NCBI GenBank assembly: GCA_050733355.1
Contig: JBOHSY010000473.1
Coordinates: 1,095-65,094 of the forward strand
Length of the DNA stretch: 64,000 nt
Direction: 5' to 3'
From: Gemmatimonadales bacterium
GTDB lineage: Bacteria; Gemmatimonadota; Gemmatimonadetes; Gemmatimonadales; GWC2-71-9
The notes beneath the pieces were generated by a model. It was not told the origin of the DNA. It worked only from the letters and a program-made list of their open reading frames with translations, and did no database searches. A program made the position numbers and the translations under genes. Shown one piece after another: positions 37,444-43,812 of the stretch; the stretch's first letter is position 1, and every line of letters starts with the position of its first letter.

Positions 37444-40400
37444 ATGAGCATCGCTGGCTACGACGTCAAGCAGGAGATCTACCGGGGCCGCCGCCGGGTC
37501 GTCTTTCGCGGCACGCGCCGGCGCGACGGGCGTCCGGTCGTCATCAAGACGACGGCGGACGAGTTCCCATCCCCCTCGCAGGTAGCCGCGCTCCGGCGCG
37601 AGCACCAGATCCTGTCATCCTTTTCCATCGAGGGCGTCGCCCGGCCCGTCGAGCTCGTCACTTACCGGGACCGGGTAGCGCTCGTGCTGGAGGACGGCGG
37701 CGGCGTCCCGCTCAAGTCGCTCATCGCGGGCGGCCCGCTTTCGCTGACGCTCGCGCTGAGCATCGGTGAGCGGCTCGCCACGACCCTCGGTGAGCTCCAC
37801 CGCCGCGGCATCATCCACAAGGACGTGAACCCGAACAACATCCTCGTGGATGCCGCCTCGGGACGCGTCACGCTGACCGATTTCGGCATCGCTTCCCGTC
37901 TCGCGAGCGAGCAGCAGCCGCCGAGTCATCCGCATCTCCTCGAGGGAACCATTGCCTACATGTCCCCGGAGCAGACCGGGCGCATGAACCGGGATGTCGA
38001 TCACCGGACCGACCTCTACTCGCTGGGCGTGACCCTCTACGAGATGCTCACCGGCCGGCTGCCGTTCGAATCCTCGGACCCGCTGGAGCTGATCCACGGC
38101 CACATTGCGCGGGTGCCGGATTCTCCCGCGGCACGGCGATCCGGGCTCCCCGAGCCCGCCTCCCGGCTGGTCATGCGTCTGCTCGAGAAGATGCCGGAGG
38201 CGCGCTACCAGGGCGCGCACGGTCTCCGCCTGGATCTGGGACGTTTCCGGGCCGAGTTGGAGTCCTCGGGGAGCATCGGCGACCAGCCGCTGGGCCGCGA
38301 CGACGTCCCGGTGCGGTTCGCCGTACCCCAGCGGCTGTACGGCCGGGAAAGCCAGTGCGCGGCCGTGCGCGCGGCGTTCGACCGCGTCGCCGGGGGTGGC
38401 ACCGAGCTCGTGCTGGTGAGCGGGTATTCGGGCATCGGCAAGACCTCGCTCGTGCACGAGGTGTACCGGTCGCTGACCCGCGGACAGGCGCAGCTGATCA
38501 CCGGCAAGTTCGATCAGCTGGCGCGGGACGTTCCGTATCGCGCTCTCGCGCAGGCGTTCCGGACCCTGGTGCGCCAGACGCTGACCGCGAGCGACGACGC
38601 GATCGGCGAGTGGGCGGGCCGGCTCAGCGGCGCGCTCGGGCAGAACGCGCACGTCATCATCGACATCATCCCCGAGCTGGAGCGCATCGTCGGACCCCAG
38701 CCACCCGCCCCGGTGCTGGGGGCCGCGGAGGCGCAGAACCGGTTCAACTTCGTGTTCCGGAAGTTCGTGGGCGCGTTCGCGCGGCCCGATCACCCGCTGG
38801 TCGTCTTCCTGGACGACCTGCAGTGGGCGGACGCCGCGACGCTCGCGCTGCTGCCGTCCCTTCTCACCGACCCGGACATCCGGGGGCTGCTGGTCATCGG
38901 CGCGTTCCGCGATTCCGAGGTCTCCGCCACCCATCCCCTGCGCCTGACGGTCGCCGAACTGGCGGATCGCGTGCCCATCGAGGATATCACGCTGCCGCCG
39001 CTTGACGCCGGCCAGCTCCGCGAGTTGGTCTCGGACGGGCTGCGGAGCGATGCCGGGCATGCCGCCGCCGCCGCGGATCTGGTGCTGGCCAAGACCGAGG
39101 GTAACCCGTTCTTCGTCAAGCAGCTGCTCGAATCGCTCGCCGCCGATGGGCTCATCACGTTCGATGACGTCACTGGCGGATGGCGAATGGACCTCGAGCG
39201 CACCTATCGGGTCGCGGTCGCCGACAACGTCCTCGACCTGATGACGGCGAAGCTCGGACGGCTGGGCGCACGGACCCAGCAGGCGCTCCGCCTGGCGGCC
39301 TGCGTGGGCGATCGATTCGACCTGCAGACCCTCGCCACCATCAGCCGGGTGGAGCCGGCTGCCGCGGCGACCGACCTGTGGGAGGCGGTCGACGAGGGCC
39401 TCGTCGTGCCGCTCGACAAGTCCTATGGATTCGCCCCGGATCTCTCCACCGGGATCGATCCCGCCGAGATCGGGTATCGCTTCCTCCACGACCGCGTGCA
39501 GCAGGCCGCCTACGCGCTCATTCCCGACGACGGGCGCCGGCAGGCGCACCTCACGATCGGCCGGTTGCTGCTGGAGCGTCGCGCCGAGGCGCCGGGCGAG
39601 ACCCTGTTCGACGTGGTGAACCACCTGAACTTCGGGCGATCGCTCATCGAAAGCCCCGGGGAGCGGCAGCGTCTCGCCGAGCTCAATCTCGCGGCGGGAC
39701 GCAGGGCGAAGGCCTCGGCCGCTTATCCGAGCGCGCTGAGCTACTTCAGCGTCGGAACCGAGCTGCTCTGCCCGACGGCCTGGACTCGCCACTATCCCCT
39801 AACGCTTGCCCTCCATCTCGAGCGAGCGGAAGCCGAGTACCTCTGCGGCCGGCTCCAGGAGGCGGAGGCCGGCCTGATCGCCCTGCTGGACCGGTGTCAG
39901 TCACCGCTTGACCGGGCCGACGTGTACCGGCTGCTCATCGTGGAGTTCGAGACGATGGCCCGGTACGCGGATGCCATCGCGGCCGGGCTCGATGGGCTCC
40001 GCCGCCTCGGGGTCGACCTTGCGGCCGAACCCGCGGCGCGGGAGCAGGTGTTCGCCGCCGAGCTGGCCGCACTCCGGCGCGAGCTCGGCGATCGGCCCAT
40101 CCCCTCGCTGGTGGAGCTGCCCCGGTTGCAGGATCACCGGATCCGGCAGGCGATGCGGCTGCTCCAGGCGATCTGGGCGCCCGCCTACATCAGCGGCGAG
40201 ACCCGGCTCGGTGATCTCGTCGCGGCGCGGTTGGTGCGGCTGTCGCTCGAGCACGGGAACAGCGAGGAGTCCGCCTTCGGCTACCTCCACCACGCGATCA
40301 CGGTGGGGTCGGCGCTCGGCGAGTACGCGCGCGGCGCGGAGCTGGGCGAGCTCGCCCTCGCGGTCAACGAGCGACTGGCCGACCTCAGGCTGCGGGCGGT

Positions 40401-43400: not shown

Positions 43401-43812
43401 GCGGGCCGACGACATCCCGGAGCTCGTGCGGTACTTCGTCCTCAAGTACGCGGCGAAGATGGGCAAGCGGATCGAGGCGGTGCCAAGGGGCGTGCTCGAA
43501 CGGCTGATGGCGTACGACTGGCCCGGCAACATCCGCGAGCTCGCCAACGTCATCGAGCGCTCGGTGATCCTGAGCCGGGGCCCGAGCCTGGAGCTGGGTG
43601 GTTTCGGGCCGCCGGGGAAGACCGACGGCGGCGACCGGACCGTGGTGGTTGCCCCGACGCTGGACGAGCTCGAACGCCGCCATATCGTGGCGGTGCTGGA
43701 GCAGACCGGGTGGCGCGTGAGCGGCCCGAAGGGCGCGGCCGTCCTGCTCGGGCTCAAGCCCACAACACTCGAGGCACGCATGAAGAAGCTGGGGGTCCGC
43801 CGGCCCGGTTGA
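37444..43812 (+). CDS. Giant multidomain sigma54-dependent activator: Ser/Thr-kinase-like - STAND/AAA_16 ATPase - helical scaffold - GAF - GAF - PAS - sigma54 AAA+ - Fis-type HTH
   Basis: Single uninterrupted 2122-codon ORF. Kinase-like aa 6-265 (VVIKT, HKDVNPNN, DFG, YMSPEQ). Walker A GYSGIGKTS (38422-38448), Walker B VVFLDDLQWAD (38800-38832). GAF ~aa 1315-1480 and ~1500-1645; PAS/PAC ~1655-1775. AAA+ GATGTGKE (42964-42987), GAFTGA (43105-43122), TLFLDEIG. HTH ~43660-43788. Confidence 0.9.
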   Translation: MSIAGYDVKQEIYRGRRRVVFRGTRRRDGRPVVIKTTADEFPSPSQVAALRREHQILSSFSIEGVARPVELVTYRDRVALVLEDGGGVPLKSLIAGGPLSLTLALSIGERLATTLGELHRRGIIHKDVNPNNILVDAASGRVTLTDFGIASRLASEQQPPSHPHLLEGTIAYMSPEQTGRMNRDVDHRTDLYSLGVTLYEMLTGRLPFESSDPLELIHGHIARVPDSPAARRSGLPEPASRLVMRLLEKMPEARYQGAHGLRLDLGRFRAELESSGSIGDQPLGRDDVPVRFAVPQRLYGRESQCAAVRAAFDRVAGGGTELVLVSGYSGIGKTSLVHEVYRSLTRGQAQLITGKFDQLARDVPYRALAQAFRTLVRQTLTASDDAIGEWAGRLSGALGQNAHVIIDIIPELERIVGPQPPAPVLGAAEAQNRFNFVFRKFVGAFARPDHPLVVFLDDLQWADAATLALLPSLLTDPDIRGLLVIGAFRDSEVSATHPLRLTVAELADRVPIEDITLPPLDAGQLRELVSDGLRSDAGHAAAAADLVLAKTEGNPFFVKQLLESLAADGLITFDDVTGGWRMDLERTYRVAVADNVLDLMTAKLGRLGARTQQALRLAACVGDRFDLQTLATISRVEPAAAATDLWEAVDEGLVVPLDKSYGFAPDLSTGIDPAEIGYRFLHDRVQQAAYALIPDDGRRQAHLTIGRLLLERRAEAPGETLFDVVNHLNFGRSLIESPGERQRLAELNLAAGRRAKASAAYPSALSYFSVGTELLCPTAWTRHYPLTLALHLERAEAEYLCGRLQEAEAGLIALLDRCQSPLDRADVYRLLIVEFETMARYADAIAAGLDGLRRLGVDLAAEPAAREQVFAAELAALRRELGDRPIPSLVELPRLQDHRIRQAMRLLQAIWAPAYISGETRLGDLVAARLVRLSLEHGNSEESAFGYLHHAITVGSALGEYARGAELGELALAVNERLADLRLRAVVHHRFAALVNPWCHSFASCLAHAREAVRAGFESGNLQVAGYAQFQQAWYGMLVERDLDAFARHHGPTVELLSRLQMHSYAEMQRIMLQWSEALQGRTDQPAGLTGGGFDEARYLELLGGTGIFRALHATVKLELLHTFGLRDEARRYAADEAAAADVFIGSIWPAMFVFRHILTLCDWLPDAGDGERPAAEAKLDELEARLARWAESAPENFRHLHLLASAEIARVRHRPGVAVTCYDAALEAVATQESPRHRALINELYGRFWLERGHPKVAAVFLAEARFGYTQWGATAKVADLDRRYGDLLHPAVEADAGPAVLTSTETLESAVDAAAVIRSAQAIAREIDLGRLLERLMRLALENAGAERGQLVLEGEDGPEVRVVGSFAGVDVREARAAPLTDRADLPVSLVNYVRRTLESVVVADAPTDERCADDPYIVRERPRSVLCTAVLNQGALVGALYVENRLTPHAFTPERVRVMQLISAQAAIAIENARLYERTREEVAERTRAEAKLRALAEGTAAVTAGDFFRPLVRHLAEALHARYAFAAECADVERTRVRTLAFWDGDTGFAETFEYPLEGTPCQHVVGGELCFHPRQVQALFPADTDLRALAAESYLGVPLLGSASEVLGHLAVLHTAPMSPTTDDLAILRIFAARAGAELERKRTGDALRESQLRYSTMAEAVPEVLFTAGPDGRCDYVSRRFADYTGLPLADCVGDGWLSALHPDDRARTASAWAESVHTATAFEMEYRFRRADGAHRWFRARAIPVPSPDGPGTRWFGVATDIDDSKRAEASLRAALDEVKRLKERLETENVYLQEQIETEHGFEEIVGRSASLRRVLGQVEQVAPADTTVLITGATGTGKELVARAIHKLSARRDRARITVNCGAIAPGLVESELFGHEKGAFTGAVSRRVGRFEVADGGTLFLDEIGDLPPDLQVKLLRVLQEGEVERLGGQRPIKVDVRVIAATHRDLGALVHEGRFRADLYYRLNVFPIRNPALRERADDIPELVRYFVLKYAAKMGKRIEAVPRGVLERLMAYDWPGNIRELANVIERSVILSRGPSLELGGFGPPGKTDGGDRTVVVAPTLDELERRHIVAVLEQTGWRVSGPKGAAVLLGLKPTTLEARMKKLGVRRPG

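Follow-up and report, generated by a model that had tools for sequence, protein, structure and literature searches.

The 64,000-nucleotide stretch of DNA studied here (hereafter the window; positions 1,095 to 65,094 of contig JBOHSY010000473.1 from an uncultured Gemmatimonadales bacterium of soil) carries a gene for a very long sigma-54 activator, that is, a bacterial enhancer-binding protein (bEBP), followed by two small genes which encode a STAS domain protein and an extracytoplasmic function (ECF) sigma factor. The activator is a 2122-amino acid protein translated from one open reading frame (ORF), from the ATG at 37444 to the stop codon ending at 43812, with no internal stop codon, as a sequence-only reading of this DNA had claimed. 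The coordinates of the activator gene, its domains and the features downstream of it are listed in Table 1.

Architecture of the giant activator

The profile-HMM scan that the sequence-only reading had called for was performed with Pfam models and matched all the domains it had proposed, namely the kinase, AAA_16, GAF, PAS, Sigma54_activat and HTH_8 domains. The motifs it had listed (VVIKT, HKDVNPNN, DFG, YMSPEQ, GYSGIGKTS, VVFLDDLQWAD, GATGTGKE, GAFTGA and TLFLDEIG) were likewise all found where it had placed them. The PAS_3 match extends over residues 1682-1765, the Sigma54_activat match over residues 1813-1979 and the AAA_lid_14 match over residues 1985-2051. Both GAF domains and the single PAS domain of the proposed layout were recovered, the second GAF domain reaching significance when its region was scanned separately, and the predicted Fis-type helix-turn-helix (HTH) was matched at the C-terminus. 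In contrast, no match to HisKA or HATPase_c was found by Pfam anywhere in the 2122 residues. The output of the protein consists instead of Sigma54_activat and HTH_8, in agreement with the proposal that a histidine kinase transmitter is replaced here by a sigma-54 output. The helical scaffold scanned by itself gave no significant Pfam match. The G+C content is approximately 70% and is even over the activator gene and its flanks.

Table 1. Coordinates of the activator gene, its domains and motifs, and the downstream genes and candidate regulatory sites in the window
Feature	Coordinates	Strand	Residues	Evidence and remarks
Giant sigma-54 activator gene, whole ORF including stop	37444..43812	+		ORF translation; identical protein on record
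Hanks-type kinase-like domain	37459..38211	+	6-256	Pfam Pkinase E 3.6e-36; PknB top PDB match
STAND-type P-loop NTPase, AAA_16	38332..38898	+	297-485	Pfam E 4e-43
STAND Walker A, GYSGIGKTS	38422-38448			
STAND Walker B, VVFLDDLQWAD	38800-38832			
Winged-helix region and long alpha-solenoid (TPR-like) sensor arm	38899..41313	+	~486-1290	AlphaFold2 models, Foldseek
GAF domain 1	41431..41862	+	1330-1473	Pfam; common to all sensor-module relatives
GAF domain 2	41971..42375	+	~1510-1644	Pfam E 6.4e-08; ~2120-aa subclass only
PAS domain	42418..42762	+	1659-1773	Pfam PAS_3 2.4e-18, PAS_4 2e-12, PAS 2.2e-08
bEBP AAA+ core and lid	42880..43596	+	1813-2051	Sigma54_activat E 4.6e-74, AAA_lid_14 E 3.2e-21; Walker B FLDE
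bEBP Walker A, GATGTGKE	42964-42987			
GAFTGA	43105-43122		1888-1893	
Fis-type HTH, recognition region LKPTTLEARMKK	43657..43791	+	2072-2116	HTH_8 E 1.5e-07
Candidate enhancer (upstream activating sequence, UAS)	43815..43879	+		palindrome CTCCCAAtacaTTGGGAA 43847-43864; half-sites ACTCCCAA 43815-43822 and TTGGGAAT 43870-43877
IHF-core-like site ATCAACTACTTA	43922..43933	+		between enhancer and promoter; tentative
Candidate sigma-54 (-24/-12) promoter TGGCATgcggaCTGCT	43962..43977	+		GG-N10-GC spacing; ends 33 nt before the STAS ATG
Mini-STAS protein gene, 88 aa	44010..44276	+		STAS_2 E 1e-09; stop overlaps sigma gene start (ATGA)
ECF sigma factor gene, 193 aa	44273..44854	+		Sigma70_r2 and Sigma70_r4_2; TIGR02937 above cut-off

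A protein identical over its whole length (P0001), derived from a metagenome-assembled genome (MAG), is on record as 'sigma 54-interacting transcriptional regulator [Gemmatimonadales bacterium]'. The Pkinase, AAA_16, GAF and Sigma54_activat domains occur together in all of the 120 best clusters obtained at 90% identity clustering, which are 45-100% identical to the activator and whose contigs are independent, come from several sources and reach 1.8 Mb. Approximately 15-20 full-length representatives with a C-terminal bEBP were found among the best 150 matches at 50% clustering. The activator family is therefore real and of moderate size. The possibility that the long ORF is an artefact of assembly or annotation, in which a kinase/STAND gene was joined to a separate GAF-bEBP gene, had to be considered, as the source is a MAG and the bEBP part is split across two frames in one relative (L005). 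This possibility is negligible: the same continuous architecture recurs in every one of the 120 independent clusters, the full-length representatives persist at 50% clustering, and the 37-member family alignment is collinear and unbroken at the junction between the sensor and the bEBP. An assembly chimera was thus ruled out by the conservation of the architecture, and the fusion is a genuine one, as had been claimed.

The search for this architecture, also suggested by the sequence-only reading, showed the combination of kinase, AAA_16 and Sigma54_activat domains to be conserved across several phyla, and the named carriers of the kinase-STAND-GAF-bEBP order are Gemmatimonadales, Blastocatellia, Eisenbacteria and KSB1. 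Among metagenomic sequences this combination is not uncommon, and databases automatically assign to it the name given above. Three length classes can be distinguished: proteins of ~2120 aa, which contain the second GAF domain and the PAS domain; those of ~2000-2040 aa, which are the Blastocatellia type; and those of ~1820 aa, which have one GAF domain and no PAS domain and include members from Gemmatimonadales, Eisenbacteria and KSB1. In the 47%-identical relative L005, the bEBP (6225-7231) lies in two frames, 6225-6740 and 6782-7231, which represents either a frameshift pseudogene or an error of the MAG assembly. A full-text literature search identified no paper on this architecture and no characterised member, although a brief earlier mention is possible; the view that no characterised example was known has thus held.

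All the elements of a complete bEBP core are present, as had been predicted. G1841 to E1848 of Walker A, the GAFTGA motif and the Walker B residues D1912 and E1913 are invariant in the 37 members. This GAFTGA is the only one in the window, and no second bEBP is encoded there. The C-terminal 340 residues align best to the FhlA, NifA and NorR models, but all scores are below the equivalog cut-offs, and the giant activator is therefore not an orthologue of these proteins. It shares with them a GAF domain located just N-terminally of the AAA+ core and connected to it by a helical linker, as well as intact GAFTGA and Walker motifs and a Fis-type HTH. It differs from them by some 1300 additional N-terminal residues that include two further nucleotide-binding domains, with a length of 2122 residues compared to roughly 500-700 in the known GAF-regulated bEBPs. 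In NorR, the AAA+ domain is repressed by the GAF domain (PMC2941729).

The structure of residues 270-1320 was modelled by AlphaFold2 from the 37-sequence family alignment, with a mean pLDDT of 87.7 and a pTM of 0.80. Beyond the NTPase the model is nearly all helix, in line with the helical scaffold of about 750 residues that had been proposed. When the model was compared to the PDB by Foldseek, the best match was the crystal structure of a STAND protein whose sensor is of the TPR type (6mfv_A; 855 columns aligned, E 1.4e-10), followed by Orc/Cdc6, MalT (8bob_C, TM 0.63 on target), Apaf-1 and CED-4. Additional weak matches of the AAA_16 region to nSTAND1, nSTAND6 and NACHT were given by Pfam, and the STAND Walker residues G327, G330, G332, K333, D457 and D458 are invariant in the 37 members. 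According to the models, AAA_16 and the scaffold together form a MalT-like STAND NTPase with a winged helix and a long helical-repeat (TPR-like) arm. A second model, of residues 1-1200 and thus including the kinase-like domain (pLDDT 88.2, pTM 0.78), suggests that this domain has a defined arrangement on the STAND module.

The fold of residues 297 to ~1290 (NTPase, winged helix and helical-repeat arm) agrees with that of MalT and of the archaeal PH0952-type STAND-TPR protein (6mfv), with a sequence identity of just 12-13%. Unlike the giant activator, neither of the two has a kinase-like domain, GAF or PAS domains or a second AAA+ motor, and MalT ends in a LuxR-type HTH and acts with the sigma-70 RNA polymerase, whereas the activator uses a bEBP output. 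In the MalT class, oligomerisation is controlled by the nucleotide state and by the ligand. The succession of a kinase and an AAA_16/MalT-like region is also seen in PknK of Mycobacterium tuberculosis, where the output is absent or LuxR-like, and in the TOMM kinase/cyclase fusion protein (TIGR03903), whose output is a cyclase. The latter model aligns to residues 297-732, with a score of 128.7 compared to the family cut-off of 705.75.

The sensor module, its relatives and the kinase-like domain

Relatives of the sensor module were searched with the N-terminal 1320 residues of five family members in one genome per GTDB species. The sample comprises at least 80 loci and is biased; the matches listed are mostly from Nostoc, Microcoleus and other cyanobacteria, and the closest Gemmatimonadales genomes were missed. 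The module is 35-47% identical to the listed relatives over almost the whole 1300 residues. For 70 of these relatives, the part of the ORF beyond the scaffold was translated and scanned with Pfam. A GAF domain was present in all 70, and HATPase_c was the output in 63, as compared to Sigma54_activat in two (a Blastocatellia MAG and an unclassified MAG), SpoIIE/PP2C in two, Guanylate_cyc in two and STAS in one (Sorangium cellulosum So0157-2). Among the listed relatives, a histidine kinase is thus the usual output of the kinase/AAA_16/GAF module, in support of what the sequence-only reading had stated.

The less common outputs include SpoIIE/PP2C in a Spirochaetes MAG (L037) and nucleotide cyclases in Caldilineaceae and Chloroflexaceae MAGs (L030 and L040). 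In Sorangium cellulosum So0157-2 (L015; NC_021658.1, ~14.46-14.49 Mb), the module ends in a full RsbR-like STAS domain with the sequence 'IIDITGLRHVD'. These STAS and PP2C fusions echo the free mini-STAS gene found beside the bEBP version. They hint at a functional tie of the module to partner-switching components, and would be compatible with the mini-STAS protein interacting with the activator.

The cyanobacterial form of the module has been described under the names 'dual protein kinases', cbSTKIII and HstK (PMC2176072), and its fungal counterparts are Chk1p and Mak2/Mak3 (PMC9069115). It is a known theme that GAF/PAS sensors can be followed by exchangeable outputs (histidine kinase, cyclase, PP2C or NtrC-type AAA+), with the exchange taking place at the signalling helix (PMC1592074), and the outputs found in the relatives fit it. 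Cyanobacteria have neither sigma-54 nor enhancer-binding proteins (PMC3162934), and the bEBP version is therefore confined to non-cyanobacterial phyla. HstK/cbSTKIII and the fungal group-X hybrid histidine kinases (Chk1p of Candida albicans, Mak2/Mak3 of Schizosaccharomyces pombe) share with the giant activator the N-terminal kinase-like domain, AAA_16, the long helical region and GAF. Relatives of this HstK/CHK1 type are 35-39% identical to the N-terminal module over ~1300 residues and have in common with it the HKDxN/KPxN catalytic loop and the degenerate Gly-rich loop; the Pfam model TPR_CHK1 matches some members of the bEBP family. The output of the HstK/CHK1-type proteins is HisKA and HATPase_c, with or without REC, whereas that of the giant activator is a sigma-54 AAA+ domain with an HTH, hence no phosphorelay. 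Lacking a histidine kinase transmitter, the activator is a variant that stands outside the strict 'dual kinase' family. Judged by its domains, it is best described as an unstudied, domain-shuffled combination of an HstK/CHK1-type sensor and a GAF-regulated bEBP rather than as a new kind of machine.

The kinase-like domain, the only part matched in a PDB sequence search (PknB best, 1e-32), retains K35, E53, D127, N132 and D146, and among the 37 members K35, E53, the DFG aspartate D146 and S174-P175-E176 are invariant. The Gly-rich loop GxGxxG is absent; it has become the Arg-rich Y-R-G-R-R-R here and is degenerate throughout the family and in the cyanobacterial relatives. In the catalytic loop HKDVNPNN, the Asp and the Asn are kept and the Lys is replaced by Asn, as it is in 33 of the 37 members. 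Five members of the Blastocatellia type read HRN...S/G, in which the catalytic Asp is changed to Asn and the metal-binding Asn to Ser or Gly. Neither the full architecture nor the promoter and the two downstream genes (STAS and ECF) have been lost in this clade. Because the system is kept in a clade with a dead kinase, phosphotransfer is not essential to the core function of the family. The kinase-like domain is thus most likely a nucleotide-binding or scaffolding (pseudokinase-like) regulator and not an obligatory phosphotransferase.

The STAS/ECF operon and its candidate promoter

The mini-STAS and ECF sigma genes were compared between family loci, for which orthologue contigs were obtained through the exact protein and through a metagenome scan. 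The matches listed by that scan were mostly ordinary bEBPs, and three family loci (L089, L091 and L095) were added from it. In all 12 loci for which downstream DNA was available, a gene for a STAS-like protein of 88-95 residues and an ECF sigma gene directly follow the activator. The mini-STAS is recognisable by sequence in 11 of the 12; in the remaining locus (L088) the pair has no Pfam match, the ECF gene having been found by tblastn and the STAS gene placed by size and alignment. Two loci of the ~1820-aa class (L004 and L087) contain two further genes, one upstream of the STAS gene for a protein with only Sigma70_r4_2 and one behind the ECF gene for a zf-HC2 anti-sigma factor. Since the other neighbours of the unit are completely different between clades, the association of activator, STAS and ECF genes is specific.

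The position of the canonical STAS phosphoserine, judged against a SpoIIAA reference sequence, is occupied by Gly here and by Gly, Pro, Arg, Ala, Lys or Gln in 11 of the 12 mini-STAS proteins. The protein scores far below the cut-off of TIGR00377, and no HATPase_c_2 kinase of the SpoIIAB/RsbW type is encoded in the operon. By these features, the mini-STAS does not qualify as a partner-switching antagonist of the SpoIIAA/RsbV type. The ECF sigma factor retains an acidic region 2.2 (DADD).

These features bear on the idea of a dual output, in which an active N-terminal Ser/Thr kinase would phosphorylate the STAS protein, the ECF sigma factor or itself, so that the ECF factor would be controlled post-translationally as well as transcriptionally. 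It draws on the presence of K35, E53, D127, N132 and D146 in the giant activator and most other members of its clade, on the control of several ECF groups by neighbouring Ser/Thr kinases (PMC7826278, PMC8999054), on the phosphorylation of an anti-anti-sigma homologue by PknD of M. tuberculosis (as cited in PMC2877116), and on the fusions of the sensor module seen in Sorangium (with STAS) and in a spirochaete (with a PP2C phosphatase). However, a Gly-rich loop is lacking and nearly all members have Asn in place of the catalytic-loop Lys, a whole clade without the catalytic Asp and the metal-binding Asn retains the system, the canonical phosphoserine is replaced in all but one of the mini-STAS proteins, the ECF factor has an acidic region 2.2, unlike the phosphorylation-dependent ECF43 (PMC8999054), and the operon encodes no RsbW/SpoIIAB-type kinase. 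We therefore regard a dual output as unlikely. Two particular forms of it were rejected: a direct, ECF43-like phosphorylation of the sigma factor is ruled out by the DADD sequence of region 2.2, and phosphorylation of the STAS at the canonical Ser by the lack of conservation of that position. A regulatory, pseudokinase-like role thus remains the preferred one for the kinase-like domain.

The 197-nt intergenic region between the activator and STAS genes holds a candidate UAS, an IHF-like site and a candidate promoter, with the centre of the UAS lying ~130 nt before the inferred start site. The palindrome CTCCCAAtacaTTGGGAA has this single match in the 64 kb. The IHF core consensus ATCAANNNNTTR likewise matches only once on both strands of the window, where 0.26 matches are expected, and the site is loosely conserved in orthologues. 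Of 14 family loci, 11 have the motif GGCAY-N5-NTGC on the coding strand of the intergenic region, in most cases at a distance of 34-42 nt from the following start codon, against a background of nine occurrences in 541 kb elsewhere in the same loci (1.7e-5 per nt). In an alignment of six orthologues (mean identity 57%), the only invariant islands are TCCCA...TGGGA and GGCA...TGC, corresponding to palindrome and promoter. Across clades, the HTH recognition region changes together with the type of the upstream palindrome: LKPTTLEAR is found with TCCCAA-N4-TTGGGA, LHPNTLRSR with CCCACGAA..TTCGTGGG, and LNRTTLLAK with TGTCAAAATATTGACA. A scan for sigma-70 promoters and terminators around the activator gene yielded nothing useful.

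Because this is the classical layout of a bEBP target, with an enhancer, a promoter and an HTH that co-varies with the enhancer, the STAS/ECF operon is probably the direct target of the activator. Alternatively, the true targets may lie elsewhere, with the STAS/ECF promoter served by another bEBP or independent of sigma-54 and the adjacency reflecting shared ancestry. bEBPs are able to act at remote promoters, the palindrome search covered one 64-kb window, and three loci have no clean -24/-12 match. This is nevertheless a very unlikely explanation, as the genes stay adjacent in loci of Gemmatimonadales, Eisenbacteria, KSB1 and the acidobacterial type even though their surroundings change completely, the palindrome co-varies with the HTH recognition region, and no other GAFTGA-bearing bEBP is found in the window.

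Upstream of the activator lies an Alginate_exp-type porin gene (35992-37395), separated from the ORF by 48 nt, and the genes 3' of the ECF sigma gene encode a DUF1622 protein, a cupredoxin and Fpg. In the 79%-identical orthologue loci, the porin gene is located downstream of DUF1622 (L001, 18180-19811; L002, 18812-20443) and purD abuts the activator, which indicates a local rearrangement in which the same gene set is kept together. A search for an ECF-type promoter upstream of DUF1622 revealed a decayed gene there instead: the sequence from 45056 to 45195 aligns, with high identity, to the 3'-terminal part of an adh_short gene that is intact at the same position in L002, so that only a C-terminal remnant of a short-chain dehydrogenase/reductase is left between ECF sigma and DUF1622 in the window and in L001. 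ARAGORN predicted two tRNA genes, one for tRNA-Leu (anticodon tag; 14-98) and one of 97 nt for tRNA-Ser (cga; 29801-29897), of which only the first is confirmed at the Rfam gathering threshold.

Outside the closest Gemmatimonadales orthologues (the window and L001-L003), a set of genes recurs in the flanks of the unit (L004, L085, L087 and L088), encoding a GMC oxidoreductase, a tandem-glyoxalase protein, an MGH1-like GH63 glycosidase, an SGL gluconolactonase, an HbpS-like protein, a MIP channel and DoxX. They may represent the ECF regulon, with a theme of carbonyl, osmotic or oxidative stress. In the KSB1 locus (L086, JABWBX010000044.1), type III CRISPR genes (Cas_NE0113 and Cas10-Cmr2 palm; 9423-13484) lie directly beyond the STAS/ECF pair, an adjacency that is probably coincidental.

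As STAND NTPases and kinases are known in defence systems, the kinase-STAND part might also be viewed as an Avs/NLR-type sensor of phage or of other conflicts, and PADLOC gave domain-level matches to PD-T4-6 kinases and RtcR-like models. These matches reflect kinase and bEBP domains in general, though, and a defence reading was rejected because PADLOC yielded nothing beyond them. The neighbours are housekeeping and stress genes in conserved synteny (purD, M48 peptidase, Fpg), the outputs of the sensor-module relatives are classical signalling domains, and no effector such as a nuclease or a TIR domain is present. Such a function is highly improbable.

Proposed circuit and its meaning

We consider it likely that the activator is a one-component, cytoplasmic sigma-54 enhancer-binding protein, composed of an HstK/CHK1-type sensor and an FhlA/NifA-like output, which drives the adjacent STAS/ECF operon and in which the kinase-like domain is regulatory. 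The HTH would bind the palindrome TTCCCAA-N4-TTGGGAA just past the activator's own stop codon. An intracellular signal would be read by the TPR, GAF and PAS parts together with the nucleotide state of the STAND domain, and would lift a GAF-mediated repression and/or favour the assembly of the AAA+ ring. The ring would then remodel the sigma-54 RNA polymerase at 43962-43977, leading to transcription of the STAS and ECF sigma genes, and the ECF sigma factor would in turn switch on a secondary regulon that is probably stress-related.

The closest precedent is HrpR/HrpS of Pseudomonas syringae, which activates the sigma-54-dependent hrpL, an ECF sigma gene (PMC8999054, PMC5263251). There too, an ECF sigma gene is preceded by a sigma-54 promoter on which a bEBP acts, so that a sigma cascade results. 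HrpR/HrpS differ in that they have no sensory domains, form a hetero-hexamer and have no STAS partner; they also come from an unrelated phylum, and the sigma factor belongs to an unrelated ECF group.

Several points weigh against this interpretation. The rpoN gene was not found: neither the window nor any of the 168 loci fetched contains an RpoN box. Sigma-54 is near-universal in diderm bacteria with lipopolysaccharide (PMC3162934), which supports its presence here only indirectly. Gemmatimonadota are not mentioned in a paper on sigma-54 regulons (PMC12316311). Three loci (L005, L010 and L086) have near-miss promoters only, and the loose -24/-12 pattern is not enriched in the window (14 matches compared to 17 expected), so that the case for the promoter rests on its position and conservation. 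The enrichment of the stricter motif has a naive binomial P of 6e-25, which is overstated since the loci are phylogenetically related. Kinase activity of this protein is possible, its catalytic Asp, Asn and DFG being intact. Finally, the coupling between STAND and AAA+ oligomerisation is pure inference.

More tentatively, the protein may be pictured as two P-loop machines in series, in which multimerisation of a pseudokinase-capped, MalT-like STAND module would template or license the bEBP ring. The non-phosphorylatable mini-STAS would then be a new partner, acting either in feedback on the sensor or on the ECF factor, and the whole would form a self-contained circuit from sigma-54 to STAS/ECF in the Gemmatimonadales, Eisenbacteria, KSB1 and acidobacterial-type (Blastocatellia-like) loci.

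What goes beyond the sequence-only reading is a concrete, testable circuit, made up of a giant bEBP, an enhancer downstream of its gene, a -24/-12 promoter and the mini-STAS and ECF genes, together with a kinase-like domain that appears dispensable as an enzyme. The kinase-like/AAA_16/TPR/GAF module is widespread, from cyanobacterial HstK to fungal Chk1 and Mak2/Mak3, and the bEBP variant offers a simple transcriptional readout for it, with a probable enhancer and -24/-12 promoter less than 200 bp from the activator gene that would be handy for its dissection. The bEBP input domains known so far are much smaller than that of the giant activator. The pairing of a non-phosphorylatable mini-STAS with an ECF sigma factor may be an undescribed mode of regulation, and the locus points to a conserved cascade from sigma-54 to an ECF sigma factor in poorly studied soil phyla.

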